From IMG/VR virus record IMGVR_UViG_3300005918_000012: a stretch of 64,000 bases of DNA. One strand, written 5' to 3'. Each line of letters opens with the position of its first letter. The stretch's first letter is position 1. The notes under the pieces were generated by a model, which saw only the letters and a program-made list of their open reading frames with translations, was not told where the DNA came from and did no database searches. This document shows, one piece after another, positions 4,079 through 62,100 of the stretch. This DNA is from a virus. The translations under genes were made by a program, and so were the position numbers.

Positions 4079-4448
4079 ATACCAGTGTGAGAGTTGTTTG
4101 ATAGAGTTTGAGATGCTTTTGTTTTTTAGTGAATATAAAGACCCTCAAGTTTGCCCGACATGCGGGAAACCAGCTAAGAAGTTGGTGTCCTTGGGTGATT
4201 TTGTTTTGAAGGGTGATGGATGGTATGGCAAAGCCTTGAAAATTAAAGGTCAGATGAAAAAGAAAAACGAGCGGATTCTAGCACGTCAGAAAGACCGGTA
4301 TCATGGAACTGGTGCAAGCCTTCAACCCAATGTAGATGGGCAGCCTGTTGATACATGGAAAGACGCTCAAAAACTTGCTGCCGATAAGGGAAAGGTTGCT
4401 GAAACCTATACCCCGATGGTGGAAAAAGAAAAAAGAGGTGAATCATGA
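4065..4448 (+). CDS. FmdB-family zinc-ribbon protein
   Basis: MPIYEYQCESC...CPTCGK...KLVS..FVLKGDGWY. Confidence 0.85.
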   Translation: MPIYEYQCESCLIEFEMLLFFSEYKDPQVCPTCGKPAKKLVSLGDFVLKGDGWYGKALKIKGQMKKKNERILARQKDRYHGTGASLQPNVDGQPVDTWKDAQKLAADKGKVAETYTPMVEKEKRGES

Positions 4449-5302
4449 GCAGTTATGGACCGTTCGATACCAGAATAGGTGTCTTAGAGCGTTTACCACA
4501 TTTTGTAGATCTTATTACCAGAAACAAACCCGGTGTAACTCAATATCGACTCTGGGGTGCTCGTAATGTCAATGATGCTTACGGGGATCTGACTGATAGT
4601 GGTGTGGGAGGTACAGGACCGACTTTGATGATGACTGCAAATGCAAATCAACGAGTCCAGAGTCCTACTTTAATCCATCGGAAAGCTGGTTGGGTTGAAG
4701 AAAGCCGGAGAGGCCAGACTTCATTTCAATTTGACATTGTAGATTTCTTAGCTCCTGCCAACCCGAAACCTTTCGGGACGGACGAAGAGACAGTTTATGT
4801 CCGTTTGCAAGAGTTTCGTCAATCCACAGGTAGTTGGGCAGAAGTCCCGATAGGAGCTCCTATCAATCCTGGAACTCCGATCTTAGGACCCATCTTGGCT
4901 GTCCCCGGAGCAAACCAAAATAAACAAGTGCCTCTGACGATCAGCGGGATAGCTCCTGCCGAGACAGGGTGTATGGAGATGTATCCTCCGAACTTTGATG
5001 AGACTGTTCAAATGGCTCTCCCGATGCACATTGTATTCCCCAGGCCAATCGGAACTCTTATGATCAGGAATGATGCTGAGGATGCAGACACATGGCTTTT
5101 AGTTTCCTATGGTATCGGCCAGCCGATGATAGCCCTTCCAGGCGGAGGGTCAAATGCTAGTATTCTTGTCCATGATACTCTTGAAGGTTCTATCAGTGAT
5201 ATTGTTTTAGCTAGTAGCTCCCCAGTTCCTGCTGCTTCTATTGGTGCTGATCCTGGATGTCCATTTACTATGGATGCTGTTACAATGAGCTGGCTTGTAT
5301 AG
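4445..5302 (+). CDS. Hypothetical beta-rich protein, probably virion-associated
   Basis: GAGG SD, ATGA overlap, and position in the head module. Confidence 0.6.
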   Translation: MSSYGPFDTRIGVLERLPHFVDLITRNKPGVTQYRLWGARNVNDAYGDLTDSGVGGTGPTLMMTANANQRVQSPTLIHRKAGWVEESRRGQTSFQFDIVDFLAPANPKPFGTDEETVYVRLQEFRQSTGSWAEVPIGAPINPGTPILGPILAVPGANQNKQVPLTISGIAPAETGCMEMYPPNFDETVQMALPMHIVFPRPIGTLMIRNDAEDADTWLLVSYGIGQPMIALPGGGSNASILVHDTLEGSISDIVLASSSPVPAASIGADPGCPFTMDAVTMSWLV

Positions 5303-21500: not shown

Positions 21501-22544
21501 ATGACCGATGAAACGAAACCAGAAGAAGCAAAACCAGCAGTTAAACCCGTCCCAGTTCCTCTAGGCATCGGGCTCGATATCGGAACTATGAATATTGTTG
21601 CTGCCCGTCGTGGGGGGAATGGCATTCAATCCAAACGGATGCGGGATGTATTCATCAGTTTACCTCTGACAGCCAAGAAGATGTTGAAATTGTCTGATAC
21701 CAGCTTTGTTGAGCGGGAAGATGACGTTTTGATTCTAGGAGACGCAGCTCTGGAAATGGCTAATGTTTTTGGCTCTCAACCTCGACGACCACTTTCAGAA
21801 GGAATCATTTCAGCTAGTGAAGTGGATAGTCTGGAGATTCTCGGATTACTTATCAAGAATGTTCTGGGAGAACCCCGAACAGAAAAAGAGCATTGTTACT
21901 TTTCTGTTCCGGCAGTTCCAGTTGATTCTGATAGAGATGTTATCTATCACCGAGGAGTTTTTGAACGTATTGTTTCAGAGTGTGGTTATACCCCTCATGC
22001 AGCCAATGAGGCTATGGGGATCGTATACTCTGAGACAGCTAAAGAAGGATTCTCTGGGATCGGTATCTCCTTCGGCTCAGGGATGACCAACGTGGCCTTG
22101 TCCATCAATACTATTGAAGGTTTGACGTTCTCTGTGTCACGAGGCGGTGATTGGATTGATATCGGTGCAGCCGGCTCTGTAGGTCAAACACAAGCTCGGA
22201 TATGTGCCTTGAAAGAAAAGGGTTTTGATTTAACTAAACCTATGGGTCGGGAACAAGAAGCTTTGGCATTCTATTATAAATCGGCCATTGATTATGCTTT
22301 GGATAAGATTGAAGAACGGTTCAAGTCTATTCAGAATCAATTCTCTCTGTCTAAGCCTATTCCTATTGTGATTTCTGGTGGTACAAGTAAAGCTGGTGGC
22401 TTCATGGATTTCTTTACCGAAGTTTTTGAGAAACGTCGGAAGAAGTTCCCTATTGAAGTTTCTGAGTTACGACATGCCAAAGAACCCCTAAATGCTGTAG
22501 CTTACGGGCTGCTGATTCAAGCTATCCAAGAACACGAGGATTAA
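21501..22544 (+). CDS. Actin-like (MreB/MamK/ParM superfamily) ATPase
   Basis: Phosphate-1 'GIGLDIGTMN', connect-1 'NEAMGIV', phosphate-2 'GISFGSGMTN', 'GGDWID', adenosine 'VISGGTS', connect-2 'PLNAVAYG'. Confidence 0.9.
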   Translation: MTDETKPEEAKPAVKPVPVPLGIGLDIGTMNIVAARRGGNGIQSKRMRDVFISLPLTAKKMLKLSDTSFVEREDDVLILGDAALEMANVFGSQPRRPLSEGIISASEVDSLEILGLLIKNVLGEPRTEKEHCYFSVPAVPVDSDRDVIYHRGVFERIVSECGYTPHAANEAMGIVYSETAKEGFSGIGISFGSGMTNVALSINTIEGLTFSVSRGGDWIDIGAAGSVGQTQARICALKEKGFDLTKPMGREQEALAFYYKSAIDYALDKIEERFKSIQNQFSLSKPIPIVISGGTSKAGGFMDFFTEVFEKRRKKFPIEVSELRHAKEPLNAVAYGLLIQAIQEHED

Positions 22545-22879: not shown

Positions 22880-23062
22880 ATGACTGATATGGATGCACAA
22901 GCAGCTTTAGAGTATTTATCTACACCTAAAGGGCAAGCTGAATTAAAAGCTGCTTTTGAACGAGGTCGGGAAGAAGCTGACCGTATCAAGGAAGCTGTAA
23001 AGATGGGTCTTGATAGTTTAAGAGTCCCTTTTGGACCCAAACATGGGTGGGGTTTACGATGA
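22880..23062 (+). CDS. Small hypothetical helical protein
   Basis: 60 aa, tightly packed, ATGA overlap with the next gene. Confidence 0.6.
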   Translation: MTDMDAQAALEYLSTPKGQAELKAAFERGREEADRIKEAVKMGLDSLRVPFGPKHGWGLR

Positions 23063-23424
23063 AGTCATCTAATGAAAACGGGTATCCTGTTATAACACCT
23101 GTACCCACAGTCAAGGATCATTTCGAACACCTAGCTAGTGTATTTACAGATATAGAAAAGACTGATGTTAAGGTAACGAATGTTGTGATGACACCAGGGT
23201 TCTGGGTAAGTCTGAAAAAAGCCAAACATTACAAGGACTCTTGTGATTTGGGTAGTAGTGGTGGAGGTCACATTGGATATGTCTGGGGTTCTAAGATATG
23301 GCTTTCTGAGGTGGTTGCTGGTGGTGAAGTTGTTGCTTATGGAGAAGATGATCCGAACTTCTTAAAAGATTGGCCTGCCTTTGCTAATTGGGGTTTTAAC
23401 TGGGGTTCTAATTTAAAGGATTAA
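23059..23424 (+). CDS. Stand-alone MCP A-domain-like protein 1
   Basis: LASVFTDIEKTDVKVTNVVMTP..W..LKK...GHIGYVWGSKIWLS aligns with MCP LADAFSLVERHDLRVARIYMNA..Y..LRK...GLMATLWGAQIVTS. Confidence 0.7.
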   Translation: MKSSNENGYPVITPVPTVKDHFEHLASVFTDIEKTDVKVTNVVMTPGFWVSLKKAKHYKDSCDLGSSGGGHIGYVWGSKIWLSEVVAGGEVVAYGEDDPNFLKDWPAFANWGFNWGSNLKD

Positions 23425-23427
23425 ATA

Positions 23428-23883
23428 ATGAGTGGAGCTCTCACAAATAGTCATCCTTTTGTAGAGGAAGAACAACGGATTGAGGATATCCCGTCTTTCG
23501 GGATACCTACACAAGAATCTTTTTATGAACTGCCCGAAGGTGTTGTAGCTACTTGTGTTTTATTGAGTTTTGAAGATCCTTTTGAGGTTTTAGCTAAGTT
23601 GTTTGATTTTATAGAGAAAACAGGCCAGTCAGTAAAGCATGTGGTAATAAATCATCAAACTTGGATAAGTATGTTGAAGGCTCAACAAAGTATACGAAAT
23701 ATAATGAGTTTAGTTAATATAGGACTTAGCGGTTATGTGGGGTGTTTGTGGAGTGTTCATGTCTGGGTTTCCCCAAGTGTCTCTAAAGATAAGTGTCACG
23801 GGTATAGTGAGTATGCTACTGAGGAATTTAAGGGTGCATACCCACAGTGTATTGAATACTTTAATAAAAACTTGAAAGATTAG
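23428..23883 (+). CDS. Stand-alone MCP A-domain-like protein 2
   Basis: LAKLFDFIEKTGQSVKHVVINHQTW..MLK...GYVGCLWSVHVWVS. Ends in NLKD like copy 1. Confidence 0.65.
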   Translation: MSGALTNSHPFVEEEQRIEDIPSFGIPTQESFYELPEGVVATCVLLSFEDPFEVLAKLFDFIEKTGQSVKHVVINHQTWISMLKAQQSIRNIMSLVNIGLSGYVGCLWSVHVWVSPSVSKDKCHGYSEYATEEFKGAYPQCIEYFNKNLKD

Positions 23884-23886
23884 ATT

Positions 23887-24156
23887 ATGTCACAAGATCA
23901 AAGAGAAGCTGCACGGATTAAGAAAGTTACAGTTACCATCCAGCAGGACTGGGAAGCTGTTGACCCGGACAATTCTGAAGATGTAGCTCTGGCTACCAAA
24001 CTCAGTGAAGATATTGTGTGGAACCTGAACCCGAAGCAAATGAACATCAGCCAGAAACGGGATGTGAATCCTGTCAGAGTTGCTGGGTCAGAAAAAATCG
24101 TGGAAATGGATGTTGGTCCCACTACTGCTACCATTTCAGGTGAACTGCTCGACTGA
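23887..24156 (+). CDS. Small protein resembling a fragment of the tail tube protein
   Basis: QMNISQKRDVNPVRVAG-SEKIVE vs tube QFNPSQSRTVEPVRGIGFGDKVSE. Confidence 0.65.
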   Translation: MSQDQREAARIKKVTVTIQQDWEAVDPDNSEDVALATKLSEDIVWNLNPKQMNISQKRDVNPVRVAGSEKIVEMDVGPTTATISGELLD

Positions 24157-24174: not shown

Positions 24175-24582
24175 ATGGAATTTAAAAGTTTAGAAGAAAT
24201 CAAAAAAGTCATTCCTGTCCCCACAAAAGAAGATGTTATAAGTAAATTGGTCGAAACGGAACACGACCTGCTGGCAGGGAAGAAGTTTGCAAGTCAAGTA
24301 GCTGATCTTTTTTCTGAGGTGGAAAAAAAGAATGGTGATAGAGTTGCAAATGTGGTTTTTAATGCCCTTACTTTTCAGGATTTTCGTAAAGCTGATCCTT
24401 ACTTAATGGATATTGAATCTCAAGCAACGAGATTAAAAAATGGTTTGGTTGGGACATTGTGGGGAGCAAACGTCTGGGTTGCTGGAAAAGATAACCCTAA
24501 AGCATATGAAGAAAATGGTTCTGATTTTGCTAAGGATTATCCTGCCTTTAATCAGTTCCAGCAACAAATAGGTTTAAAATAA
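24175..24582 (+). CDS. Stand-alone MCP A-domain-like protein 3 (closest to MCP)
   Basis: ADLFSEVE...RVANVVFNA...DFRK...MDIESQATRLKNGLVGTLWGA vs MCP ADAFSLVE...RVARIYMNA...DLRK...LDIESQATLLKTGLMATLWGA. Confidence 0.9.
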   Translation: MEFKSLEEIKKVIPVPTKEDVISKLVETEHDLLAGKKFASQVADLFSEVEKKNGDRVANVVFNALTFQDFRKADPYLMDIESQATRLKNGLVGTLWGANVWVAGKDNPKAYEENGSDFAKDYPAFNQFQQQIGLK

Positions 24583-24618: not shown

Positions 24619-25818
24619 ATCTATTTTAGATTAACAGAAGCATTAAAAAGCCGGTTCATCATGGAGCTGAGGAATTATTGGCAATACCATCCTCTGTATC
24701 CTGATCTTCCAGATCATATCATAGGGAAATATTCTTTCCGAGAACGCCCTTCCACGGGCATCATTGTGAAAGTTGGTGGGGGTAGTCATGTCATGTTATC
24801 TGCTGACAACTACATCGGAATAATAGAGAGTTACGTTCATCTGGCTCGATACAAGAATAAGCCTGGAATGGCTATTGAATGGGTACGTGAAGATTCTGTA
24901 GCTATTCAGAACAATAATGGGTATTTCCCATCCCGGGCTGGTGTCTATTATATAGAGCTGACTGAAGATAAAGAGTTTTACGTGGATGCTCTATTGAATG
25001 TCTACAATGAGATTATGACCTCAGTGGATACTTTCACATATTCGATGTCTGCCGTCCCTTTGACTGGGACAATTCGAGTTTTTGAGATGCCTGCTCGGTA
25101 TCAACTTATTGAAGGTGAGAACTATTCAGTTGATGTGGACGGGCAAGGAAATCCGACAGGTGAAATTACTCTGACACAAGCTCTGACAGGTGGGAGATAT
25201 TTGGTTTCAGATTACAAATACCCAACTGGTTCTCAGGGTCCTTATACTATAGATCCAGGCTTTGCAAACAACACAGCTATCCCCGGAGTCGTTCTGGCTT
25301 TTGGCAGAAGAAATAAAAAAGGTGATGTTCAAGCAGTGGTTGTTGAAGAAATCCGACGACCCGCTTCCTTGGCCTACGGAGGTAAATGGGAGCTCTCTAT
25401 GGAGTTCGATGTGACGGCCAGAGATGTGTTTGCTCAACAGGAGATTGCTGATCAAACGGTTATCTATTTGTGGGGTATTCTTAGACCCCAATTATCCTCT
25501 GAAGGTATTGAAATGTCTGAGATTTCTCTTGGTGGGGAGTCTGAGGAAGTCTATGATGAGAATGGGGATGATTATTTCTATAATTCTTCGTTTTCTTTGA
25601 CTGTCACAACTGATTGGGAGATCAATATTCCATTGAGTGCTTTCCTCCGTCAAGTGACCCCATCTACCCGAGTTTACTCTCAATATATTGCCTCGTTGAC
25701 AGAAGATCAGTTGAGATCTGCCGGGACAGGAGTTCGTCAGGCAGAGGATATGGGATTGGAATTAATGAGAGACCCATTCTTTGTGGGTCGGATAGCTACT
25801 TTTGAAGTTATTCGTTAA
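24619..25818 (+). CDS. Putative tail terminator/neck protein with an inserted Ig-like domain; probable ATC start (first ATG at 24661)
   Basis: Position before the sheath gene. C-terminal 'WELSMEFDVTARDVFAQQEIAD...YFYNSSFSLTVTTDW'. GGAGGT SD lies 5 nt before an in-frame ATC. Confidence 0.6.
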   Translation: MYFRLTEALKSRFIMELRNYWQYHPLYPDLPDHIIGKYSFRERPSTGIIVKVGGGSHVMLSADNYIGIIESYVHLARYKNKPGMAIEWVREDSVAIQNNNGYFPSRAGVYYIELTEDKEFYVDALLNVYNEIMTSVDTFTYSMSAVPLTGTIRVFEMPARYQLIEGENYSVDVDGQGNPTGEITLTQALTGGRYLVSDYKYPTGSQGPYTIDPGFANNTAIPGVVLAFGRRNKKGDVQAVVVEEIRRPASLAYGGKWELSMEFDVTARDVFAQQEIADQTVIYLWGILRPQLSSEGIEMSEISLGGESEEVYDENGDDYFYNSSFSLTVTTDWEINIPLSAFLRQVTPSTRVYSQYIASLTEDQLRSAGTGVRQAEDMGLELMRDPFFVGRIATFEVIR

Positions 25819-32520: not shown

Positions 32521-34044
32521 TTAACGTCTAATACTACGGAAACCACCAGCTCGTTCGGCATCAGCAATGACTTCTTGTACCAGTTTCAGATGTTCTTTGA
32601 GTCGGTATTCGAGATCTCTGAGGGCTATCTCCTCGTAGGAGTCTGAGCTTCCTTGGCCTAAATACCATAGTGTTTTTTGCGTTTTCAAACTCAAGGGTAA
32701 GATGAGTTGTGTAGGCATGTCTTCAAACTGTTTAGATTTCTTACCAGGGGTAACAACTTTAACAGCAGGGGCAAAGGTTATCGGGGCTTTGACATCCGGG
32801 GCTGAGGTAAAGGTTATTGGAAAAGAAGTTAGTGGCATAACAACTGGTTTGGGTTTCATTTTCTTCGGAGCAACATCAAGGGCTTCCAAATCTTTCAGAA
32901 TGGCATCAACATCAATACTTTCGGTAACAGATGCAACTTCTTGGTCAGAAATAGGTTCTTGATACGGGACAGCTACCCCGTTTGGTTCGTCAAGTTTTAT
33001 AGGGTCAGGTTGTGTTATTTTTTTATAACACAACCCTATTTCTTCTTTAGAAGGCATTAGTAAATCAGACAATTCTTCTTTTCTAAGCCATACTAAGAAT
33101 CGTTTTACTGATGTATAGATAGAATGCATTGTTGATTCGGCATAATCCGGGGAGATGTGTGTAAAAAAGTTCTGGACTGATTCTTTAGTAATATCTTCGG
33201 GTTTCGTTTTCTTACCGACAACGTCTGCAAAATCCTGAATGTGGTTCCCGTGGCTTTTTTGGTGAGTTTTACTTGCACGTTTGATTTTGGGGGGGAGATC
33301 TTTCAGATGTTGTTTTACCGCTGTTTTTAAAGTTTTGGTCAAATTGTCCTCCTTCACCCCATTATCTGTAGGGGTTGCTAGTATTTCTGGGAATTCTAAT
33401 GGGTTAAGGTCACTTGTTTTCGGGATGAGGTTTGAAACATATTCGTATTTTTTAGCACCTTCCATACCTGTATCTTTTATTTTGAGAGAACCTTCAGCCA
33501 AAAGTTGGTCAATCCCTTTTTTGGCATCGGTTTTTGAAACTTGGAAAAAATCCATAACATCCTTTAATGTTGGATATTGAGGATATTTATTGCCAGAGTG
33601 AGCCTGTTGATAACAGTACCGCATGTAATTCCGAACGATACTTTTTTGCCAGTCGTTTTTAAAGTTGGGAGTAAAGGGATCAATACTAGCATACCCACCA
33701 AAACATACTTTTTCAATATGCTCTCTTAATAGGAAACTTGGTTGATATCTAATGACACCAACACCATGTGTTATGTCAAGAAAACCTTTTTGAGTTAAAG
33801 ACTCCAGATATTCTTCTACAGACCCTGTTCTTAATTCTTTAATACGAATAGGGCGGTTCCAATTTTTATTTGCATACTTGGGATCTCTTAAAAACCCTTT
33901 CTGAAAAGCCTCGTTTTTCTTTTCTTTTTCTTTTTTCAAAAAAGAACAGATTTCTACATCTGTCCAGTGGCCGTGAAAGCCATCACCAGCTTGAAGCATA
34001 ACTTTGAAAAGTTCAAATCCGTGTCTGTTTATAACTTTTAACAT
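32521..34044 (-). CDS. Putative DNA-binding protein: winged-HTH-like segments plus an integrase SAM-like (core-binding) domain, with no catalytic domain
   Basis: 'PTLKDVMDFFQVSKTDAKKGIDQLLAEGSL' (wHTH-like) and 'EDITKESVQNFFTHI...AESTMHSIYTSVKRFLVWL' (int SAM-like). Only long minus-strand gene, with AAGGA SD. Confidence 0.6.
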   Translation of the reverse strand: MLKVINRHGFELFKVMLQAGDGFHGHWTDVEICSFLKKEKEKKNEAFQKGFLRDPKYANKNWNRPIRIKELRTGSVEEYLESLTQKGFLDITHGVGVIRYQPSFLLREHIEKVCFGGYASIDPFTPNFKNDWQKSIVRNYMRYCYQQAHSGNKYPQYPTLKDVMDFFQVSKTDAKKGIDQLLAEGSLKIKDTGMEGAKKYEYVSNLIPKTSDLNPLEFPEILATPTDNGVKEDNLTKTLKTAVKQHLKDLPPKIKRASKTHQKSHGNHIQDFADVVGKKTKPEDITKESVQNFFTHISPDYAESTMHSIYTSVKRFLVWLRKEELSDLLMPSKEEIGLCYKKITQPDPIKLDEPNGVAVPYQEPISDQEVASVTESIDVDAILKDLEALDVAPKKMKPKPVVMPLTSFPITFTSAPDVKAPITFAPAVKVVTPGKKSKQFEDMPTQLILPLSLKTQKTLWYLGQGSSDSYEEIALRDLEYRLKEHLKLVQEVIADAERAGGFRSIRR

Positions 34045-34160: not shown

Positions 34161-34556
34161 ATGCCGATGAAATATACTATGAGTGAGTTAGCGGAAAGAT
34201 CCGGGGTGACAGCCAGAACGATCCGCTACTGGATTGGAGAGGGTCTCCTGAAAGGTCCTTTGGGTGGTAAAGGGCATGGAGCCTATTACACTGACGACCA
34301 TTTGAAGCGTCTCCAAACTATTCAAGAAATGAAAAATGGCCAAGGAGATCAGGAAGGGATGACTTTGAGGGATATCAAGTCTACTCAAGATGGTTGCAGT
34401 AATCTTGAGTTCAAAGTTACTCGTCCGACACACATTTGCCCTATGGATGGGGTAGACCTAATAATTGCTGAGAATATTCCGTTACATTACCGACGTGCTT
34501 TTATCCAAGCTATAGTTAATGTAGCCAATTCTATTACAAACAGACGAAGGAGTTAA
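34161..34556 (+). CDS. MerR-family HTH protein
   Basis: YTMSELAERSGVTARTIRYWIGEGLL...YYTDDHLKRLQTIQEMK...GMTLRDIK. Confidence 0.9.
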   Translation: MPMKYTMSELAERSGVTARTIRYWIGEGLLKGPLGGKGHGAYYTDDHLKRLQTIQEMKNGQGDQEGMTLRDIKSTQDGCSNLEFKVTRPTHICPMDGVDLIIAENIPLHYRRAFIQAIVNVANSITNRRRS

Positions 34557-34559
34557 GAG

Positions 34560-37070
34560 ATGAATCCATTTAATAATGAAGAAGAACCCAGAGGAAACGT
34601 CCTCATTGAAGCAGGGTCTGGTTTAGCCGTCCCCCTTACTATGCAGAGGATGGATTTAGCTGGTCGAGTAACTCCTGCAGGAGCAATGCTCAGAGTAACC
34701 CATCAATTCAAGACTGAGAGTGATGGTCCGATTGAAGCTATCTATACATTTATGTTGCCCCGGAACGGTACGCTCAGACGATTCATCGTCAAGGGTGAGG
34801 ATTTCGAGGTTGAATCTAAACTGGAAGTTCGTAAAGAAGCAAGAGCTAAATACGAAGAAGGTGTTGAAGCAGGCCATCTGTCCGTTTTGGCAGAAGCTAA
34901 CCCTGATGGTATGGTCTCCTTGTCCGTTGGTCAAGTACAACCGGATGAGTTGATAACGGTTGTGATGGATATCATATCTGGTGTGGAACTCAAGGATAAT
35001 ACTTACAGATTCCGATTCCCGTTCACTTTAGCTCCCAGTTATCATGCTAGAGCTACAACTTCTTCGACAGGGAAAATGCAACTACCGACAGATGTATTTG
35101 GTGATCTTATTTTACCTGAGTGGAAGGATGATGCCAGCGGTCTTCATCAGGTATCGTTCACGATGAATGTTGAAGCAGCCGGTAAATTAGATTGCGTCTC
35201 CTCACCATCTCATCGTATTCAAGTCAGACCAAATGGAGAAGGTTCTGTTGAAATCAAATTGTCAAGTGCCGGAGATATTCCGAACCGTGACTTGGTTATT
35301 GATGTGCAGGCTAAAGAAGTTGAAGCCTCTGTATTTGCCGATACTAAGCTCGTCTCCAAGAAGACCAGTAAAGATGATCCCAAGATTCCGAAGGATGCTC
35401 CCCGATGGGCAGCTCTTGTCCCATCGAGCCTGATTCCGAAGATGAAGACAACCCCCAGAAGAGTTTGTTTCGTCTTGGATGATTCCGGTTCAATGAGTGG
35501 AGCACCTATCAAGCAGGGAAGATTAGCTCTCCGAGCCTGTTTGTCAGCTCTTAGGCCGACAGATGAGTTTGGTCTGATGTATTTCGGATCAAATTACACC
35601 AAGTTTGATGACAACATGGCCAAGGCCACCGATGCCAACCGGAAACGGGCAGATAAATTCATCGATCCGATTGGTGCTAGTAGTGGTGGGACAGAACTGG
35701 CTGCGGCTCTTGGAGCAGCTATAAGTATTCTGGATGGTTCTGGTGGGGATATTTTCCTGATGACCGATGGCCAAGTGTTTGAGTCCAGTACCATTATTGA
35801 ACAATGTGCTGCTGCTGGGACACGAGTTCACGTTCTGGGTATTGGATCAGCCAGTCAAGATAGATTCCTTGCAAGTCTTGCTCGTCGAACAAATGGTCAG
35901 CAGGGGATGGTTGGAGTGACCGAAGATATTACTTCTAAAGCATTGGGACTTTTCAATGCTGTCAGGCAACCTGTCCAGACCAATCTGAAAGCTTATGTTG
36001 TTACAGGTAAGAAAATGGCTCAGGAGCATGAAGTAGATGTTATCTGGGACGGTTATCCTATTTTGCTGACGGATGACGGTACAACCGGTCTGAACGCCCC
36101 CACAGCTATATCTTTTACATGGGGCAAAGGGAAACAAGCCAAGAAGGTCAAAGTTCCTATGAATTACATCCAAGAAGTTCCGAATGGTCTTTCTTGTCTT
36201 CTGTATGCAGGTCGTCAGGTTGAAGATCTGGAGAATGCTATAGATGCCGCTCTGAAAGATAGCCCTGCCAGAAAAAATTCAGAAATTATGCTGAAGGCTG
36301 TTTCAACGACTTACGGGCTGGCTAGTCAAGTGATGTCCCTGATTGCCGTTGTAAAACGAGCAGGGGATCAAGCTGGACAGCAACCGGAACAGAGAGTTGT
36401 GGCCGTGGGTACTCCTGAAGGAATGGCTAACCGCCAAAATAGTAGGGGTATGCTCCGTGGGATGCTCGTTGATTCTTGTAGTGTGATGCTCGTTGATTCT
36501 TGTAGTGTGAGTGGAGGAAGCAGTACCCGTTATGGATCTTCACCATCGGTTAATTATTGTGCTCAGACCCTCGGATTTATGGATGGTGAGCCTGAGAGAA
36601 GTACACAACCACTAGGTTTCAGAACTAGAACCAAGAGCTCTAGCTTATCAAGTTCGATAACTAAGGATCTTGAGAATCTTAATGATTCCATTACTGCTTA
36701 TAGTGCAGATGAGGATTACGGTTTGGTTTGTTATATAGTCAAACTTCAATCTGATGGTGGTTTACCAGGCCTTACTCGGAAGAAACGTGCCCATGAGACG
36801 GCTATTCTGGCTTTGGCTGCTCATATGGAAGATCAGGGCAGTGATTCTCCGAGCTACAGCCTCCATATAGAGAGGATGCTGGAATTCTTGAACCATTACC
36901 TTGACCTGAATGCTGGTAAAGACCCAAACATGGCTCTTTTGGTTGGGATTATTGAAGCAGGTCAGACTGCTTTAAATGAGGATTGCAGACAGATTCTCTG
37001 TAATAGTCCAATGTCAGGTGACTCTGAAATAAACTGGGCTCACCTATCAGGTGCTTTATCCAGCCTCTAA
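34560..37070 (+). CDS. VIT + von Willebrand factor A domain protein
   Basis: VIT 'IEAIYTFMLP...EARAKYEEGVEAGH', vWA MIDAS 'FVLDDSGSMSG', 'GGTEL', 'FLMTDGQV', 'VHVLGIG'. Confidence 0.92.
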   Translation: MNPFNNEEEPRGNVLIEAGSGLAVPLTMQRMDLAGRVTPAGAMLRVTHQFKTESDGPIEAIYTFMLPRNGTLRRFIVKGEDFEVESKLEVRKEARAKYEEGVEAGHLSVLAEANPDGMVSLSVGQVQPDELITVVMDIISGVELKDNTYRFRFPFTLAPSYHARATTSSTGKMQLPTDVFGDLILPEWKDDASGLHQVSFTMNVEAAGKLDCVSSPSHRIQVRPNGEGSVEIKLSSAGDIPNRDLVIDVQAKEVEASVFADTKLVSKKTSKDDPKIPKDAPRWAALVPSSLIPKMKTTPRRVCFVLDDSGSMSGAPIKQGRLALRACLSALRPTDEFGLMYFGSNYTKFDDNMAKATDANRKRADKFIDPIGASSGGTELAAALGAAISILDGSGGDIFLMTDGQVFESSTIIEQCAAAGTRVHVLGIGSASQDRFLASLARRTNGQQGMVGVTEDITSKALGLFNAVRQPVQTNLKAYVVTGKKMAQEHEVDVIWDGYPILLTDDGTTGLNAPTAISFTWGKGKQAKKVKVPMNYIQEVPNGLSCLLYAGRQVEDLENAIDAALKDSPARKNSEIMLKAVSTTYGLASQVMSLIAVVKRAGDQAGQQPEQRVVAVGTPEGMANRQNSRGMLRGMLVDSCSVMLVDSCSVSGGSSTRYGSSPSVNYCAQTLGFMDGEPERSTQPLGFRTRTKSSSLSSSITKDLENLNDSITAYSADEDYGLVCYIVKLQSDGGLPGLTRKKRAHETAILALAAHMEDQGSDSPSYSLHIERMLEFLNHYLDLNAGKDPNMALLVGIIEAGQTALNEDCRQILCNSPMSGDSEINWAHLSGALSSL
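36461..36508 (+). repeat. Exact in-frame 24-bp tandem duplication (MLVDSCSV x2)
   Basis: gatgctcgttgattcttgtagtgt repeated twice. Confidence 0.95.
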
Positions 37071-53183: not shown

Positions 53184-56100
53184 ATGAGTTTCCAATTTGA
53201 CGGAAAAGTATTAGAAGGTGTACGGCAATCCCCAGTGAATGCTGCCACCACAGATGAACCTGGAACGGCAGTTATCCAAGATATCCGACCTCTGCCCCAA
53301 ACTTTTGAATTAGATGCCCCGGATTTGGTGTCTGTAGCTGCCGATCAGTATCGGGTAGCTGCTTTGGACACCCCTGGTTCAACCGTTATGGAGTATTTAG
53401 TTTGGGCACAGAATTCAGCTCAGTTAGCAACTGTTGATAACCCTGATTGGTGGACAGATGGTGGCACTGGTGAGGTACCTACTGGAGATTTAGATGTTAT
53501 TGCTTACCCTGCTACAGTTGATGAGGTTACACATACTGACGGGACGGCTAATGTTGTCATCGAGGATGAAGGAAATCGGAGCATTGGGTCTATTTTATGG
53601 CTCGTAGTTGCTCGTGGTGACGTGGAATACGATGATGACGGTTGGGTAGACTCCGATGATCCTACACAAGGCAGAGAAGGAGATAACCCTTACCTTTTCT
53701 GGCAGATTAATACTGCAAATCAGAACCCTGTATCTGGGATGGTTACTCTGACTCCTGCTCAATTAGTTCTTTTGGATGGAGGTCTTTCCATTGAACGTGG
53801 TGATAGGATTGTCAAAGTTGGATACACAGTAGCTCCCCCGAGGTTCTGGTGGACTCGTAACGACCGGTATGAACAGCGTTTCGGATGGAACGGTTCAACC
53901 CAGCGGTGGGAACCTTGGAAAGGTTCTGGGGTCAAAGAGTTGGGGTATCTTCTTTTAGATGAAGCCTCTTTCACGTTGAGTCCAAAAATCCAAAACCTCC
54001 CAGTTGGAGCAATTCTTCCGGGTGATGGCACACCTTCAGGTGCTGATAAATACTCAATGATCCGACTCGGTTCTGATCCCGGAGTAAATTCAACTCCGGC
54101 AGCTCCAAGTGATGAGTGGGCAGGCATTATGGTTAAACTTGATGATGCCGTTGAGGATTTCGATTTCAGTCAAGCCGGCACTCTGATTGCCGTTATGGGT
54201 CAGACCAATGGAAAACTGGTATTTAACCCGGCTTATGTGCTGCTTAATGCCGGAAATAAGATATGGTACTCATACAAGAGTTTTAATGCTGATGAGGATG
54301 GTGTCATAGGGAGCATTCAAGATGCTCGAACAGATGATTTGTATCTGGCTCCATTGCCTGGTCCAACTGATGCTCCACTCCTTCGGTACGGCAATCGGAC
54401 GTACCTTGATGCCGTGACGTTCAATACTGACGGTGAGATGGATGCCGCTGGTGATCCTGACGAGGGTCAGATATATTTGTCCTTATCAACTGGACGGTTG
54501 GTACTTAGTTACGTTGATCTCGGTAAAGTTGATCCTGATAATACTGCTACATTTTCTAAATACTATTTTGGAAACAAAGTGGTCTACGATGGAGTAGCTC
54601 TCTGTCAACGTCCTCAGCCGACAAAATCTCCTGTTCGTTTAGTAAATGCAGCAGGGAATCTCACAATAGATGCCTCTGATGCATACCTCCCAGATTCAGA
54701 AACATTACCGGACAGTTATAATCCTTCTGATTGGAACGATGCTTATAGAGGTTTGGGTGTCTCTGGGATATTACAAGTTCCCGATGAGTTGGGTGCTTTA
54801 CCCCAACTCCCAACTGGGGGTAGAGAAGTCCCAGTTCGACCAGGTGGTGATAACTATGATGATGGAACTAAAGACCCGAACATTGGGATGGTGAGAGCAT
54901 TAAAAGATACCGTAAGTGATACTATCATCTTTGGTAGGGATTATGCTGTTGCCGAAGTCATCCCTTACAGAATCCCAGATGACAAACCTTCAAAGATTCG
55001 TAGCCCACAGGCTTACGTCTGTCTTCAAAAAGATCCTAGTGACCAAGGTTCTGAAGTTCAATTTAGCCATACAGATGCCCATCGATTGAGTGGTGATTAT
55101 ATTTATTTTCTCCAAGCAGCTCTGACTCCTGCTATTTTTTCAATAGAAGCTAAGATTTATTCCCGGAACAGAGACATCTTCCGTTTCGATGGAGATGAGA
55201 TTTTTTATTTTAATGTGGATTCAGCAGATTATAGCTGGGACCCAGTTGCTTTGATGGCAGCTAATCCTGATAATACCTATTTCACGGCAGAGGAAGTAGC
55301 CGAGGATATGGCTACGGGTGCTCCTGTAACCGCTATGAATGGTCGGATTATTATCACTGGGGCGGTCTCGGTTGAGATTGGTTTCGGTGGGACTGATAAA
55401 GACCTCTCCGGTGCTACAGCCTTGGGATTCCTCCCCGGTTGGAAAGCTGTTGAGGGTGTCTCTTGTTGGTTACCTGATTCTGGGGTTAGTGTAGGTTTAT
55501 CTCGAAGTCCTGTTAATCTGGATAAATCGAAATCAACCTGTGATTTTTCTTATGTCGGGCGTGTCCAAGATGGTATTTTGAGTGATGGCTTACAGCCGAA
55601 TCCTTATTTCTTTTTCATCAATGCACCCTTACAAGATATTGCTGGGTACGATGACAATCTATTCTTCCGCTTGATAAGTTATATCGTTGATGGAGATGCT
55701 GTTAGAGTCGTCTTTAAGACTTTAGATCATTACAAGGACATCATCTATCGGTTCGGCCAGAAGAAGTTTGATTGGGTTGCTGAAGATTCTTATGTCCAAC
55801 CTGTCGAGCAGGCTCTTAACACCCTGACATTAGGGAATGTTGGGGTTGTCCCCGAAGCTATGGTCGGAGCTCCTGGGATTGGTGGTGGTCTGTATGTGAA
55901 TTCTGGGGAAGGTGGTTTTGTTCTTCAAGCTCAGGATGACGATTATATCCTACCGTTTGAGGGTGCCCCCGGAAATGCAACATTGATTCATCGGTTTGGT
56001 AGAAGAGTTCAGTTTGGTGCTCAAGGATCGTTCTCCGCCGGATCAGATCAATTTATAGATAACACCGTAGACTTCACAGACCCTGAAAAGGAAGTGCTTT

Positions 56101-59100
56101 CAGGTTATAGGCTCAAGATCACCAATGGGGATGCTGAAGGTTCATATTATATCACGGCTGTTACAGAACATACCCTGACGGTTACCCCCTCCTTCTTATG
56201 GGCTTCCGATCAGCCTGCTGCCTGGGAGTTGTTTGAGGGTTATACTAAAGATACTTACGACCCAATGGTCGTAGCTGATATGCTATATCAAGAATTCAAC
56301 CCCTTAACAGAAGAACCTTTTCAGATTCGAACATTGTCGTATGTAGGTAGGGTTCTTCCTGATTCTGCAACACAAGCAGCAAACCAATTAAAAGCCAATA
56401 TCCAAGGAGCTTTGTCCAGTGGCCGACCCATTAATGTGCGGTACGGAGCTGTAGCCCCGACTGATTCAAACACCGTTGCTTTAACTTGGCTGACGAAAAC
56501 TGATTTAGGGGTTATGGAAAATGGTTTGTTGATATTACCTGACGTAACTTCTCTCAGGTTTACCCAAGAAGCATTCAGCATTCAAGTTGGGACGGTCATA
56601 TTCTCTCATGGTGACCCAATACACCCCTTAGTAGGTGTTTCGGCCTTCAGCGTCGACCCTGGAGCTTCTATAGAGTATCTGACGGTAGATACTGAGTTCC
56701 CAAAAGGGCAGTTGAAGTTTGGTACTGAGGTTCTGGGAGCATATGCAGAGAGTCATGTTTTAGTTAATGATGATTTCCTTCCAGCAACGGAATTGGCTTC
56801 TTTACACGGTGAGATAAGTCCTTTGACAGGCCAGCTCAATTTATCTGAAGTTGACCTTCTAAGTTTTGCCGGAGAGAGAGCTTACTTCGTCGAGCAGATG
56901 GATACTCAGGAAGACCTTTCTGTTCAACCTATGAGCGGTAGTGTTGCTTTCCTTCGGCCTTTACCCAAGGGTGTGTTGGTTGAGATGGTGTATTATGCTG
57001 CTGACCTCGAAGGCCGTAAAGTACAATATCCTGTCCTTCGATTGGACGGGACTCCCGTACAAGATCAAACAGAAACTCGTCAGATCACAGAATTCCTGCC
57101 AGTGTTTATCCGAGACGAAGTGGCTGAACGAGAAACAGATCGAATCTTTTACTTCAATACGGACTATAATACTGTTTACTCTGACATTGACCCGATCATT
57201 TACATCAGATCCGCCCAGCAAAACTATAATGAAACCAACTGCTTAGTTGATTATATGCCAGATGGCAGAGGCCGATTGACGTTTATTACGTATGATGTTA
57301 CTTCCGATGTGAATGTTAAAGTTACATATGCTGTGGCAGAGTCTCAGGGTGGAGAACGTGCATACGAAACCAGCACGAAACCAGTCTATCGTCCACCTTT
57401 CTTCATTACAGCCGATCAGAACAGATTTGGTTTACACGGAGATAGAGAGAATGAGTTTGAAGCAGGCCAACTGCTCAGGTTTGGCAAAGAGAATTTCTAT
57501 GTAAAAGGAACTAAGTATTACCCAGAGGTATCCGATTCGGATGGGAACGTCACAGGAGATATTACCGCTGTTTATATTTTCCCTCAGACTATTCAGGAAG
57601 TCGGGAGTCGAGCTCCTGCTCGTGACGTTCTGACCTTGAAAACTCTGATGCCTATTACTCCCGTAGTTGATCCTAATGGAGATGTAGTTGGACCGAATGG
57701 AGAAGCAATAGCAGTCACGACAACGGCAGCCTTGGGGTTGATGTTTGAGGTAAGTATTATAGAGTATCCGTTCGAGCCGATCAATCGTGGTCAGACAGAC
57801 ATTGCATTCAAAGGAAATCTGACAAGTTTAGCTGTCCCCGGCCATATCCTTGAGTTCGGTGGTATCCCTTATACTATTGCTGGAGCTGAATTGTCTGATG
57901 ATGGTTCACGAACAGTTATTTCGATTGCAACCGGTATCCGACAGGCTTTCACTGTGGCAGATGACCCCACCGTTCGACTCACATGTCGTCCTGTATATCC
58001 TCCTAACGTGGTGGATTTGCTGGGGGTTGGGCAGTTTGTTCCTGAAGAAGGGTATGAGCTGGTTCAGTATGGGTTGACAGATGGAGATGATAATGTTCTT
58101 CCGGGGAAAACCTTGGTAGACACTGTGGATTATGCCTTTGATCTCTCTAATGGTTTGGTGACGCTCTTAGCTCCTATCCAAGAGCCTTTGAATGCTCCCG
58201 AGTCATTGAAGATGTCCTTTGTCAGGCTTCGGCAGTTAGCCCCTTACGTTCAAGAGGGTGCTATTATCAGGCCGACATATTCAGCAACCTATCAGAATAT
58301 AATAACCCCGAGTGAAGACAACGGGTTATTGGGGGCTACATTACAAGGACGATACACGTTCCGTAACCCTGACTCATTCTATTTCCGAATTGTTCCAATG
58401 ACTCAGTTCCTCGTTGAAGTGACTGAAGAAGTCATTAAGGAAATCACGAGTAAGCAGGCAGCCAGCGGAGCTCCTCAATCTGGTGGTGGGGATGATAACT
58501 GGCAGCAGGGTCGGATAGGTTTGAAATCTGAACGACGACACCTGATGAACAAAGATCGAATGGCTCGAACATTCTTAGATTTTTACAATACGACGACCAA
58601 TGCTTTTGAGCAATTTAGAGAAACCATATCAGGAGAGTTGGTTGGGGATCGTGATGGCAAGTTCCGATTCTGGATTGGCAAAGGAAATGAATGGCCGACT
58701 CCGGGTTATGAGGATGAGATCACGGGTGCTTTGACACCTCGAAATATTTTCACTGAGGTCTTTACCTCTCGGGCTGAGGGTTACGTTTACATACAGCCTT
58801 ATGATGCTTTGGTAGAACCTCAGTCCTTTGAGGTTTCAGGCTCTGAAATGACCGGTAAAGTTGTGAATATTGATGAACTTCATAGTATGATGGATGAGCA
58901 ACGTGATCTCGTAGCAAATGAGGTTGATGATATTGTTATGAGTCGGTACGATGCCATCTTCAAATGGAAAACAGGTTGGCCTTTCTATTCTTTCATTCTG
59001 AAAGGCCAGTTCTATTGGATGTATCAGACTCAGAAGTTCTCTCGGTTGTTCCCTTTGTTTACAAGAACATTCCTCAGAACGAATCCGGGAATCGATGCTG

Positions 59101-62100
59101 ATCTGGATGCTCAAGAAGTAGGCTTCTATTCGGCAGGGCGTTATGACTCTGAAGATGAGTATCAGAAAACAACGGGTAATACGATTGCCCAGTTAGCTAA
59201 TCCTGTAGTAGGGGATATAACTTCTGTCAAGTCCTTGTTCTTGAAGAAACGAAAAGCCCGTGCAAGAGTCTGGCAGTATTTCCCGAATGGTGTTCCAGCT
59301 GCTGCTTTCAGCCCAACCTCACCTGAAATTACTTCACCGTGTTTGATTGCTACGCCCGGTTGGATCAGTGATTTCCCAATAGACCCGACCACAGGGTTCC
59401 CTAACATATCACAATTCCTCATTAATAACGGGGACATACCTGATATTGAGACTGGTGATCCTGAGATGGCCGTCCCTCCGTTTGAAATTGGTGATCAGAT
59501 TGCTTGGGGCAAACCGACAGGTAGAGTATATGATGCTTTCTGCGGGTCTAAAAAAACAGATGGTGATTTTACAGGCTTATACGTTGAGAGTGTTCTCTAT
59601 GGGTGTGTCATTACATTCATGGATGTTGATGATGTGCTGATAACTGATCCAAATAACATCTTAGTTGGAACCAATGCTCAAACAGGTTTTCCTGCCGATG
59701 GGTTTATAGAACTGGGAGACACCGTTCAATCAATAGATATTTCAGGGACTGTTGAGATCAGCAATCCTCCTACTACTGAGGATATGGAACTGGTAGCTGC
59801 TAATCAGAGTAATTACCGACCAGGGTTCGATTTCCAGTACACTCAGGATGGTCAGATACTGGATGTAACATTACCTTCGAAAGACGACCCTCATTTCTGG
59901 CATTTGAAAGAGATGTTGGGACAGAACCCAATACCACCTTTGACTTGTTTAGACGGAGCCGTTGAATTTTACTATGACGGCCAGAACCCTCTATTGATTC
60001 CTGCCTTAGAAGGAGATCCCCAAGATGACTCCGGAGATTTTCATATTCCATTCCTGCAGGTGAAGAATACAGAACTAGACCGGTTCAACGAAGGTTCCAT
60101 TATTGCTGACAGTTTGAAACAAGATAACTTGGGTGTCGGCCTCTATCCTAACGAATGGTTGGGGAATGACGGCACAGTGACGACAATCCCCGCAGTTAAT
60201 CCCGGTCAAGAGAATATTGTTCCTGACGACCAGCCAGCTGCTTTACTGACTACGACAGATGTAGACCCTGCAACATTACCTCCGGGGTCGGCTAATCTTG
60301 ATGAATATGACCTGTTGTTTACCCAAGTGCAAGGGACAAGTCCTTTCACAACTAATGGGTTGGTAACTCCTGATCCAGGAGCAATGGGGATTCTTTCCGT
60401 AGGGCGGATAACTCCACGGAATGGGGCTTGGACACTTTCAAATGACGGCCAGCTCCCAACTGAAACTGGAGAAGGTTCTATGATCGAACCTCCACGGTTT
60501 GTAACTCAAACCAAAGATGGCTCTCCGATTCGGTACAAGATCGAAAATGCCATGGTGAGTGAAGAAAACACAGGTTCGTTGATTGGTATTAAGTTACGTA
60601 CTTACGATGCTGCCGCTCTGGCCACACATTATATGGTGTTGGATTTCACTGATATCAATATTGACATGAGTGGTTTGGATGCTATTTACAATGCTTCATC
60701 AAACAACACAATCACCGTTAAGCTCCTTTCACACGATGACTCGGCTGCTATTGTTGGTCCGGGTGGAGTACCAGCTCCAATCCCAGGTTCAGTATTACTG
60801 ACACTAGGGATTCAACAAAGCACAGGTCTGACAGTTACGAACTATACTGACCCTCCAGTAACGACCACGAACTTAACTAATGCCCAGTTCGGTGTGGACG
60901 GTGCTGTCATTGGGGCACTCTTGGGTGTAGACCCAGCGGATTACATTATTGGTAACGCTCGGTATGTCCTGCTGACTTTCAGTACCCTTACAACTCCTGT
61001 GGTGGATTTGATCTGGGATGTGCCGAACCCTCCTGTAGCTACAAGTACTCGTCCTGATTGGTTTATTCCTTATGGGGTGTCTGATTACTTGGGTGACCTT
61101 TATACCGAAGCAGATTACGGGATGGATTTTGTATTTGATGTGGACACCTACAATATAGCAGGGACGCTCGGAGAATCCACGACAGCTTATATTGGTTCTG
61201 ACCGCTTAACCTTCAATGAGGGCATTGATTTCAGCAAGGCTGAGGGACGTGGAGCAGTTCATCCCTTGAATCCTCTTACTGAGTTGGAAACTTTGTTATC
61301 TATTTATGAAGTGACTGTTGGACATAATAGTGTTCCGACCGTATATGCTTCAACTATCAACACATTCTGTAACGGTGATAATGGTGGGCTGCCCGTACCT
61401 TTCACTTTCCTTCCACGGGATGGTGTTGTAGGAGTCTTTGGCTCACTCGTCGTTCATGGATTTGAGGGTTATGACGGAGCTACAGGGAATATTCCTGTCA
61501 TCGGTAATCTGGCTACTTTCTCAGGAGCTGCTTCAAACAATAAAACTGCAACCTCCCTTCCTATTTGTGAGGGTACTGGATTGATGGAGAGTACTTTCTC
61601 AGGTATAACTGATGCCGAACTCTATGATAATAAGGTGTCAGATGCTATTATTACTGTGGGGGATGTTTCTCAGATAGAGTCTGGTGACATTCTAGTTATC
61701 AAACAAGACGTAAATGGGGAAGCTACAACTAAGGCTGGAACTTACCTTGTTCGACACGGTATTCCACAACATGATTCGGTAGGTTCCCCTACTGATGAGT
61801 GGTGGTGGTCAGCCCCTTCGTCAGTAGCAGATAATGAAACCGGCTGGTGTCCAGTTCATTTCCCCACCGTGGTTAGTTATGATGACGGAACTCATCAATT
61901 AACCATATCTGATCCAGCTCTTATCAGGCCGTTAGAGAGTGGGGTGAATTCTGAATTCCCGATTGGACACGAATATGGATTCCCAGAACCTGCAGCAGTA
62001 CCTACACCTGGTAATTATACGTTCGTGTATATTATCAGGAATGTTTCAGGTCTTTCGACAGCTGATCCAGGTGGTACTCTTGGTGATGTTGATTTTGATG

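Follow-up and report, generated by a model that had tools for sequence, protein, structure and literature searches.

A probable tail-tube-derived mini-protein encoded among capsid-derived genes in the late structural region of a very large phage

The DNA analysed here is a single stretch of 64,000 nucleotides, referred to below as the window. The gene at its centre of interest, s89, encodes a protein of 89 residues and lies in a variable slot between an actin-like ATPase gene and a tail-terminator-like gene, in the company of three small genes that are paralogous to the C-terminal part of the major capsid protein (Table 1). Spacing within this cluster is tight. The preceding gene stops 3 nt ahead of the s89 start codon, and the gene after s89 begins 18 nt past the s89 stop. 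The junctions of the D1 repeat family are 15–21 nt long, are of the type AAAG(G)ATTAGATTATG and stand ahead of three consecutive small genes. s89 and s135 share a reading frame and are separated by a TGA and a TAG stop. Promoter and terminator scans between 19.5 and 26.6 kb gave scores at the level of shuffled sequence. A 60-aa ORF at 22880-23062 was considered as a decayed s89-like copy (repeat D5) and dropped, as the mini-tube HMM gives no match there.

Table 1. Coordinates of the genes and features discussed in the text; positions refer to the window unless a related locus or protein is named.
Feature	Coordinates	Strand	Basis and remarks
Major capsid protein, C-terminal 190 aa	1..573	+	Gene begins before the window; parent of s125, s151 and s135
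Actin-like ATPase, Volactin family	21501..22544	+	PF25216, E 8e-76; delimits the variable slot upstream
s125, small paralog of the capsid C-terminal part	23047..23424	+	Paralogous to s151 and s135
s151, second capsid-derived paralog, directly 5′ of s89	23428..23883	+	Paralogy; family HMM
Conserved gene junction, AAAGATTAGATTATG type	23869..23889	+	Direct-repeat family D1, 3 copies: before s151, s89 and s135
s89 'mini-tube' protein, 89 aa	23887..24156	+	ATG ORF; probable diverged free-standing copy of the N-terminal strand/hairpin half of the tube
s135, third capsid-derived paralog	24175..24582	+	Matches the capsid C-terminus over 59 aa (51% identity)
Tail-terminator-like gene	24661..25818	+	Tunturi_5 gp324 'tail terminator', E 2e-8; delimits the variable slot downstream
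Giant tail sheath protein, 1781 aa	26457..31802	+	Both ends match Tunturi_5 sheath gp326, E 3e-55 and 5e-48
Tail tube protein p283, 283 aa	37233..38084	+	Probable parent of the copied segment; residues ~35-103 are the s89 counterpart
Domain X occurrences	L095 4772-5590, 3720-4874; L093 4654-5382; L101 4702-4977; L104 5038-5328; P0123 residues 1-185		

The window covers part of the late structural genes of a very large phage. Close relatives of its tube protein, p283, are found on contigs of 400–536 kb, and the ORF at its left end shares 50% identity (E 7e-62) with the major head protein gp334 of Tunturi_5, a 309-kb jumbo phage. The sequencing runs that contain the locus are salt-lake metagenomes, none of which is recorded as RNA, and a look for proteomic data found none. 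The presence of the giant sheath gene indicates a contractile tail. This sheath is unusually large; its Tunturi_5 counterpart has 1204 aa and matches at the two ends only, so the middle of the protein is lineage-specific.

Several further features of the region deserve mention in their own right. The Volactin-family ATPase is encoded inside a late structural operon, and a homolog stands 5′ of the terminator-like gene in 42 of 80 related loci. Three genes separate the sheath from the tube. The first (32521-34044, minus strand) combines an integrase SAM-like domain with a weak DnaD_N match, and the other two (34161-34556 and 34560-37070) account for a MerR regulator and an 836-aa VIT plus vWA protein; at the equivalent sheath-to-tube position Tunturi_5 encodes an 827-aa 'DNA ejection protein'. 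Towards the end of the window, 3′ of baseplate-sized genes, an ORF of more than 3600 aa (53184-63998) continues past the last nucleotide.

The sequence-only reading had compared s89 with a segment (QFNPSQSRTVEPVRGIGFGDKVSE) of what it called the tube gene. This segment is located in the ORF of p283, 13,077 bp 3′ of s89. We modelled p283 with AF2 using a 115-sequence alignment of two subfamilies, the second of which was found with the Tunturi_5 homolog as query. The model has a pLDDT of 56 overall, with core blocks at 70–83, and a pTM of 0.51; a shallow alignment of 33 close homologs gave a pLDDT of 35. In a Foldseek search against the PDB, the best 50 matches were all tail-tube/Hcp folds, with E values from 1e-4 and TMt up to 0.67. 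An all-against-all VIA-align comparison placed the PVC tube (6j0b_a) at the top, with a Z score of 9.7 over 136/148 residues, and gave a Z score of 9.6 over 133/139 residues for the tube of phage 812 (8q01_A). Among viral models (BFVD), the closest were gp180 (E 2e-10) and gp179 of Bacillus phage G.

The gene context of p283 points in the same direction. Its gene, which is strongly conserved, lies 3′ of the sheath gene and 5′ of large genes of tail or baseplate size, and it shares a contractile-tail module with the sheath gene. More than 750 homologs share ~70% identity with p283 and occur on contigs of up to 536 kb. By tblastn, tube homologs are present in both Tunturi_5 and LR745208.1; the Tunturi_5 protein, gp329, is 40% identical to p283 and is encoded three genes 3′ of the sheath gp326. 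From the matches of the model to solved tubes, together with this context, we accept p283 as a tail tube protein by predicted fold, as the sequence-only reading had named it.

In sequence, p283 represents a new, unannotated family of tail tube proteins. There is no curated tube family for it, and none of 62 family members has a Pfam match at E values up to 5. The family matches a single PHROG, phrog_985 'virion structural protein', through 26 of its 62 members (best E 4e-4). Language-model neighbours of p283 include clusters in which 28% of members carry PF26461. PDB sequence searches with tube profiles returned chance-level matches only.

s89 is a real gene under purifying selection. Its orthologs are 56–68% identical, and dN/dS against four of them is 0.19–0.26. 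It evolves faster than the surrounding structural genes: in the same relative, s89 is 65% identical and the tube 82%. Neither Pfam nor PHROG holds a family for s89 or for 16 members of the mini-tube family to which it belongs. The Atlas model of s89 is of low confidence (pLDDT 0.46, pTM 0.28) and its structural neighbours are uninformative. When s89 was co-folded with residues 20-240 of the tube, the score was 0.24 and the mark 0.32, a value that argues neither for nor against binding.

The starting observation, an 89-aa ORF that shares half of some two dozen positions with a tube protein encoded 13 kb away, was confirmed. s89 is an intact ORF with an ATG start, and reading across the quoted positions gives 12/24 identities with p283. 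BLASTP finds 17/42 identities, with an E value of 7e-4 as a single comparison. Against all 405 ORFs of the window, the same match has an E value of 0.11, and the tube-family HMMs (A1 and A4) score s89 at E about 1. The direct match between s89 and the tube, taken alone, is therefore not beyond chance.

Because the tube HMM fails directly, the link between s89 and the tube rests on intermediates. An exhaustive search of 1.8 billion representatives returned only three relatives of s89. One of them, P0123 (293 aa), matches s89 with its C-terminal 100 residues (E 1e-11) and carries, just ahead of the s89-like part, the sequence Y-V-Y-D-Y-G-T-G-P-N-T, which is the N-terminal motif of the tube. In the set of window ORFs, P0123 matches p283 with an E value of 8.5e-4. 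A close s89 ortholog in another related locus, L093, starts with M-E-Y-K-Y-D-Y-G-T-K-P-N-T and aligns with tube residues 22-84 over 84 columns. Both proteins thus keep the tube motif Y-x-Y-D-Y-G-T-x-P-N-T, and each matches the tube in a pairwise comparison at E 1e-5.

Profile comparisons agree with these pairwise results. We built an HMM from distant small mini-tube relatives only, which are encoded by similarly arranged genes for 59–100 aa, containing neither s89 nor any tube sequence, and ran it on a database of 11,404 sequences. It matched s89 (E 6.3e-4) as well as ~190 tube proteins (from E 0.005). An hhalign comparison of a 16-member mini-tube alignment (A5) with the tube family (A4) gave an E value of 3.3e-4 over 41 columns at 38% probability; across comparisons of the s89 family with the tube, hhalign probabilities were 17–38%. 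Tube proteins ranked higher than all decoy ORFs. Profile similarity of moderate strength is hence present, and the earlier description of s89 as a tube fragment holds in the sense that the protein appears related to the N-terminal strand/hairpin block, with the rest of the fold missing. On the strength of these alignments, we conclude that s89 probably descends from the 5′ part of this lineage's own tube gene, and we regard its assignment as a tube-derived accessory protein as highly likely.

The alignments cover tube residues ~22-103 only. On the model of p283, the strands with a counterpart in s89 are residues 35-45, 55-59, 62-66, 71-75, 83-88, and 94-101. s89 ends ahead of a helix at residues 108-111, and the three long C-terminal strands of the tube (132-142, 191-210, and 215-233) have no counterpart. 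Lacking the helix and these strands, s89 cannot form a complete tube subunit; its 89 aa compare with a fold of ~130 or more residues in such subunits. p283 itself also contains extra sequence, inserted at about residues 143-190 and appended at the C-terminus. Invariant columns of the tube family are densest in a run that the copied block overlaps. It may correspond to the hairpin that mediates contacts between rings, as had been suggested from the sequence, judging by the order of secondary-structure elements in a medium-confidence model and by general knowledge of tubes rather than by residue-level superposition.

The genes that flank s89 derive from a different virion protein. s125, s151, and s135 encode proteins of 125, 151, and 135 aa, and the HMM of this family matches the C-terminus of the major capsid protein with an E value of 1.2e-17. 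This bears out the earlier proposals that s89 is nested among capsid fragments and that the locus holds part-copies of more than one virion protein. The capsid-derived small genes occur in the closest relatives only (L090, L091, and L094). In L091, a single ORF (4446-5195; on the same contig as L009 9316-9987) joins an s89-like domain to an s125-like, capsid-derived domain. When searched by tblastn, the L009 fusion is colinear with the window across s89, the two stop codons, and s135 (E 1e-11).

A further element, which we call domain X, travels with the mini-tubes and is either adjacent or fused to them, the fusions being in both orders; where the two are separate genes, the mini-tube comes second. 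It has ~90 aa and the motif D-D-P-x-x-R-x-x-G-F. In the window, the best match of its HMM is to residues 154-171 of the capsid C-terminus, spanning 18 columns with an E value of only 0.026; compared by hhalign with the capsid-like small genes, it reaches a probability of 0.6%. By this sequence resemblance, domain X may be another capsid fragment.

s89 is not a one-off but a member of a small accessory family present in several lineages of related huge phages. Mini-tubes of this family have 59–102 aa, occur in 1–3 tandem copies, and in some cases are joined to a capsid-derived or X domain; in a collection of 5.8 billion proteins they form 14 clusters, all unnamed. We collected 80 loci by way of homologs of the terminator-like gene and detected mini-tubes in 22 of them, confined to the interval that the actin-like and terminator-like genes enclose. 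Most lineages have the mini-tube as the final gene ahead of the terminator-like gene. The length of the interval in relatives varies from 48 to 2278 bp; in several it is 48–93 bp and gene-free, and in the window it is ~2.1 kb. As the slot is empty in many relatives, s89 is an accessory gene. A core neck or terminator gene would be expected once per related genome, and the distribution of mini-tubes, in both loci and copy number, departs from this. Intact mini-tube ORFs are found in lineages ranging from 41% to 60% GC, and Shine-Dalgarno-like sequences precede several of the homologs.

The slot has a varied content in other loci. In L101 (5269-5921), three tandem mini-tubes of 79, 59, and 78 aa lie directly 5′ of the terminator-like gene; the two that were inspected, the first and the second, have a Shine-Dalgarno-like sequence ahead of them. 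A TnsA-like/NUMOD3 homing endonuclease gene (L001 1321-2106) adjoins P0123, and a sequence that we read as a TnpB-like remnant (L092 4785-5222) adjoins a truncated mini-tube of 61 aa. In L009 (8523-9404) and L001 (1-393), the stretch from the actin-like gene to the mini-gene array includes a gene for a protein of 293 aa, for which the window has no counterpart. This protein combines a G-R-R-S-G-K-T P-loop with an I-P-x-W-E-A-N-P-S motif, a combination that recalls terminase large subunits, and Pfam gives no match for it.

Taken together, the features of s89 point to an accessory gene engaged in some conflict, and not to a core part of the virion. This reading draws on its optional presence, fast divergence, changing copy number, and domain shuffling, on the location of the slot at a mobile-element hotspot, and on probable late co-expression with the proteins that are copied. 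A recent study offers a lead as to what the conflict could be. In that work (2026; PMC13581612), the bacterial STAND sensor Avs16 contacts a conserved β-hairpin of the tube at the ring-stacking interface, and in the capsid A-domain the interface that forms capsomers is bound by the sensors Avs7, Avs8, and Avs10. By analogy, the surfaces read by Avs sensors may be of the same kinds as those copied in s89 and its neighbours.

Our leading guess, which we hold tentatively and at clearly less than even confidence, is that s89 is a mimic of the tube hairpin that acts as an immune decoy. The protein would be produced alongside the virion proteins and would display the hairpin surface of the tube without the body needed for polymerisation. 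As a competitive mimic, it could then occupy host immune sensors that read the tube hairpin, and adjoining or fused capsid-derived pieces could do likewise for sensors of the capsid. We rank this explanation first because the fusion of a tube piece to a capsid piece fits a decoy with several targets better than it fits a role in assembly. Taken as one statement, a tube-derived identity combined with this mechanism falls somewhat short of an even chance.

Several considerations speak against a decoy. A fragment that keeps the epitope might trigger a sensor instead of blocking it. That the tube-family HMM misses s89 means that the copy is much diverged, and it may no longer resemble the epitope. 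The position of the gene in the neck/tail module, usually right 5′ of the terminator gene, also fits a role in tail assembly.

Such a role is the most serious alternative, although we think it unlikely. s89 would dock where the terminator-like protein or the tube rings receive hairpins, and would either delay capping or polymerisation or chaperone its partner for as long as the tail is unfinished. Within the neck/tail part of the late operon, the gene is closely packed with its neighbours and in most lineages is the last one before the terminator, and its product probably derives from the strand/hairpin block that in known tubes forms the ring-to-ring contact region (PMC13581612 and general knowledge). 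These points favour an assembly modulator. They are countered by the many relatives in which tube, sheath, and terminator are the same and the slot is empty, which means that assembly does not need s89; the variable copy number and the fusions to capsid-derived and X domains are also hard to explain in this way.

It is less probable still, and in our view rather improbable, that s89 is a minor component of the virion or neck, a small structural protein related to the tube fold, along the lines of the small tube-like proteins that serve as head-tail joiners and terminators elsewhere among phages, with no mimicry involved. Relatives of the tube fold are reused as neck and terminator proteins in many phages, and the language-model neighbours of s89 in the Atlas (a tube initiator, P2 GpU, and Dit-like fragments) are all fragments of the tube-fold family, though their scores of 0.80–0.82 equal the chance level. 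However, many close relatives have no such gene, 89 residues cover about half of the tube fold, and a sequence that diverges faster than the structural genes around it would be unexpected for a virion part.

That s89 is an unrelated small protein, resembling the tube by chance or convergence, seems distinctly improbable. The E value of the direct match among window ORFs, the failure of the tube HMM, and the low hhalign probabilities would all be expected on this account, but it leaves unexplained that a second tube motif occurs, in the right order, in two separate family members, that a profile free of both s89 and tube sequences finds both, and that tube proteins outrank all decoy ORFs. Least probable is that mobile elements duplicated part of the tube gene and left s89 behind as a decaying, functionless remnant, since the homing endonuclease, the putative TnpB-like remnant, and the truncated copy that mark the slot as a hotspot in relatives are outweighed by purifying selection measured against four orthologs, by ORFs that stay intact across lineages of widely different GC content, and by the Shine-Dalgarno-like sequences ahead of several homologs.

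Returning to s89 as a hairpin mimic acting as an immune decoy, the idea can be widened to the phage group. Huge phages would then carry, in their late operons, an optional island of 'self-epitope' mini-proteins, consisting of part-copies of both their tube hairpin block and their capsid protein, sometimes fused, that blunts bacterial receptors of the Avs and DSR2 types which recognise just these conserved surfaces of assembly. We consider this would-be new class of counter-defence by self-mimicry a doubtful extension of the findings. An action of the mini-proteins on those sensors would reveal how phages shield proteins that are hard to mutate, and an action on the phage's own tail would make them a new kind of assembly regulator. 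The mini-proteins are short and easily expressed, which makes both ideas testable.

Among known systems, the closest are tail tubes themselves. p283 appears to share its fold with Pvc1 of PVC (6j0b), the tube of phage 812 (8q01), and gp179/gp180 of Bacillus phage G, and s89 shares sequence motifs with the N-terminal strand/hairpin part. Unlike the tubes of contractile systems and myophages, s89 comprises about half of the fold and is without the helix and the strands at the C-terminus. There are well-known cases in which the tube fold was duplicated to give full-size virion parts. Full-length paralogs reused in virions include gpU and gpFII of lambda, gp48/gp54 of T4, and Afp5/Afp7; these are tube-fold duplications encoded in tail or neck modules, and they are complete domains and conserved core parts of the virion. 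The mini-tubes resemble them as probable duplications of the tube fold located in a tail/neck module. They differ in being half-domains, in being optional and variable in copy number, and in their occasional fusion to capsid-derived sequence. No earlier description of phages encoding fragment copies of tube or capsid proteins came up in our full-text literature search, and a conserved, optional family of half-fold tube copies is absent from Pfam, from PHROGs, and from the literature searched.

For the proposed function, two comparisons can be drawn. DSAD1 is reported to be a phage inhibitor of the tube-sensing defence protein DSR2 (PMC10981675). As a phage protein that counters a sensor of the tail tube, DSAD1 is a possible functional analogue of s89, for which binding to a sensor is purely hypothetical. 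DSAD1 is not known to be a tube relative. The second comparison is with the targets of the Avs sensors. Avs16 and Avs7/8/10 are reported to recognise the tube hairpin and the capsid A-domain interface, respectively, and the small genes described here appear to be copies of the tube block with the hairpin and of a C-terminal segment of the capsid protein; the study of these sensors (PMC13581612) concerns host sensors and full-length phage targets, with no phage-encoded fragment copies, and the link from s89 to a sensor is hypothetical. Set beside these systems, s89 would be a duplication of the tube fold, with the possibility of a new principle of counter-defence.
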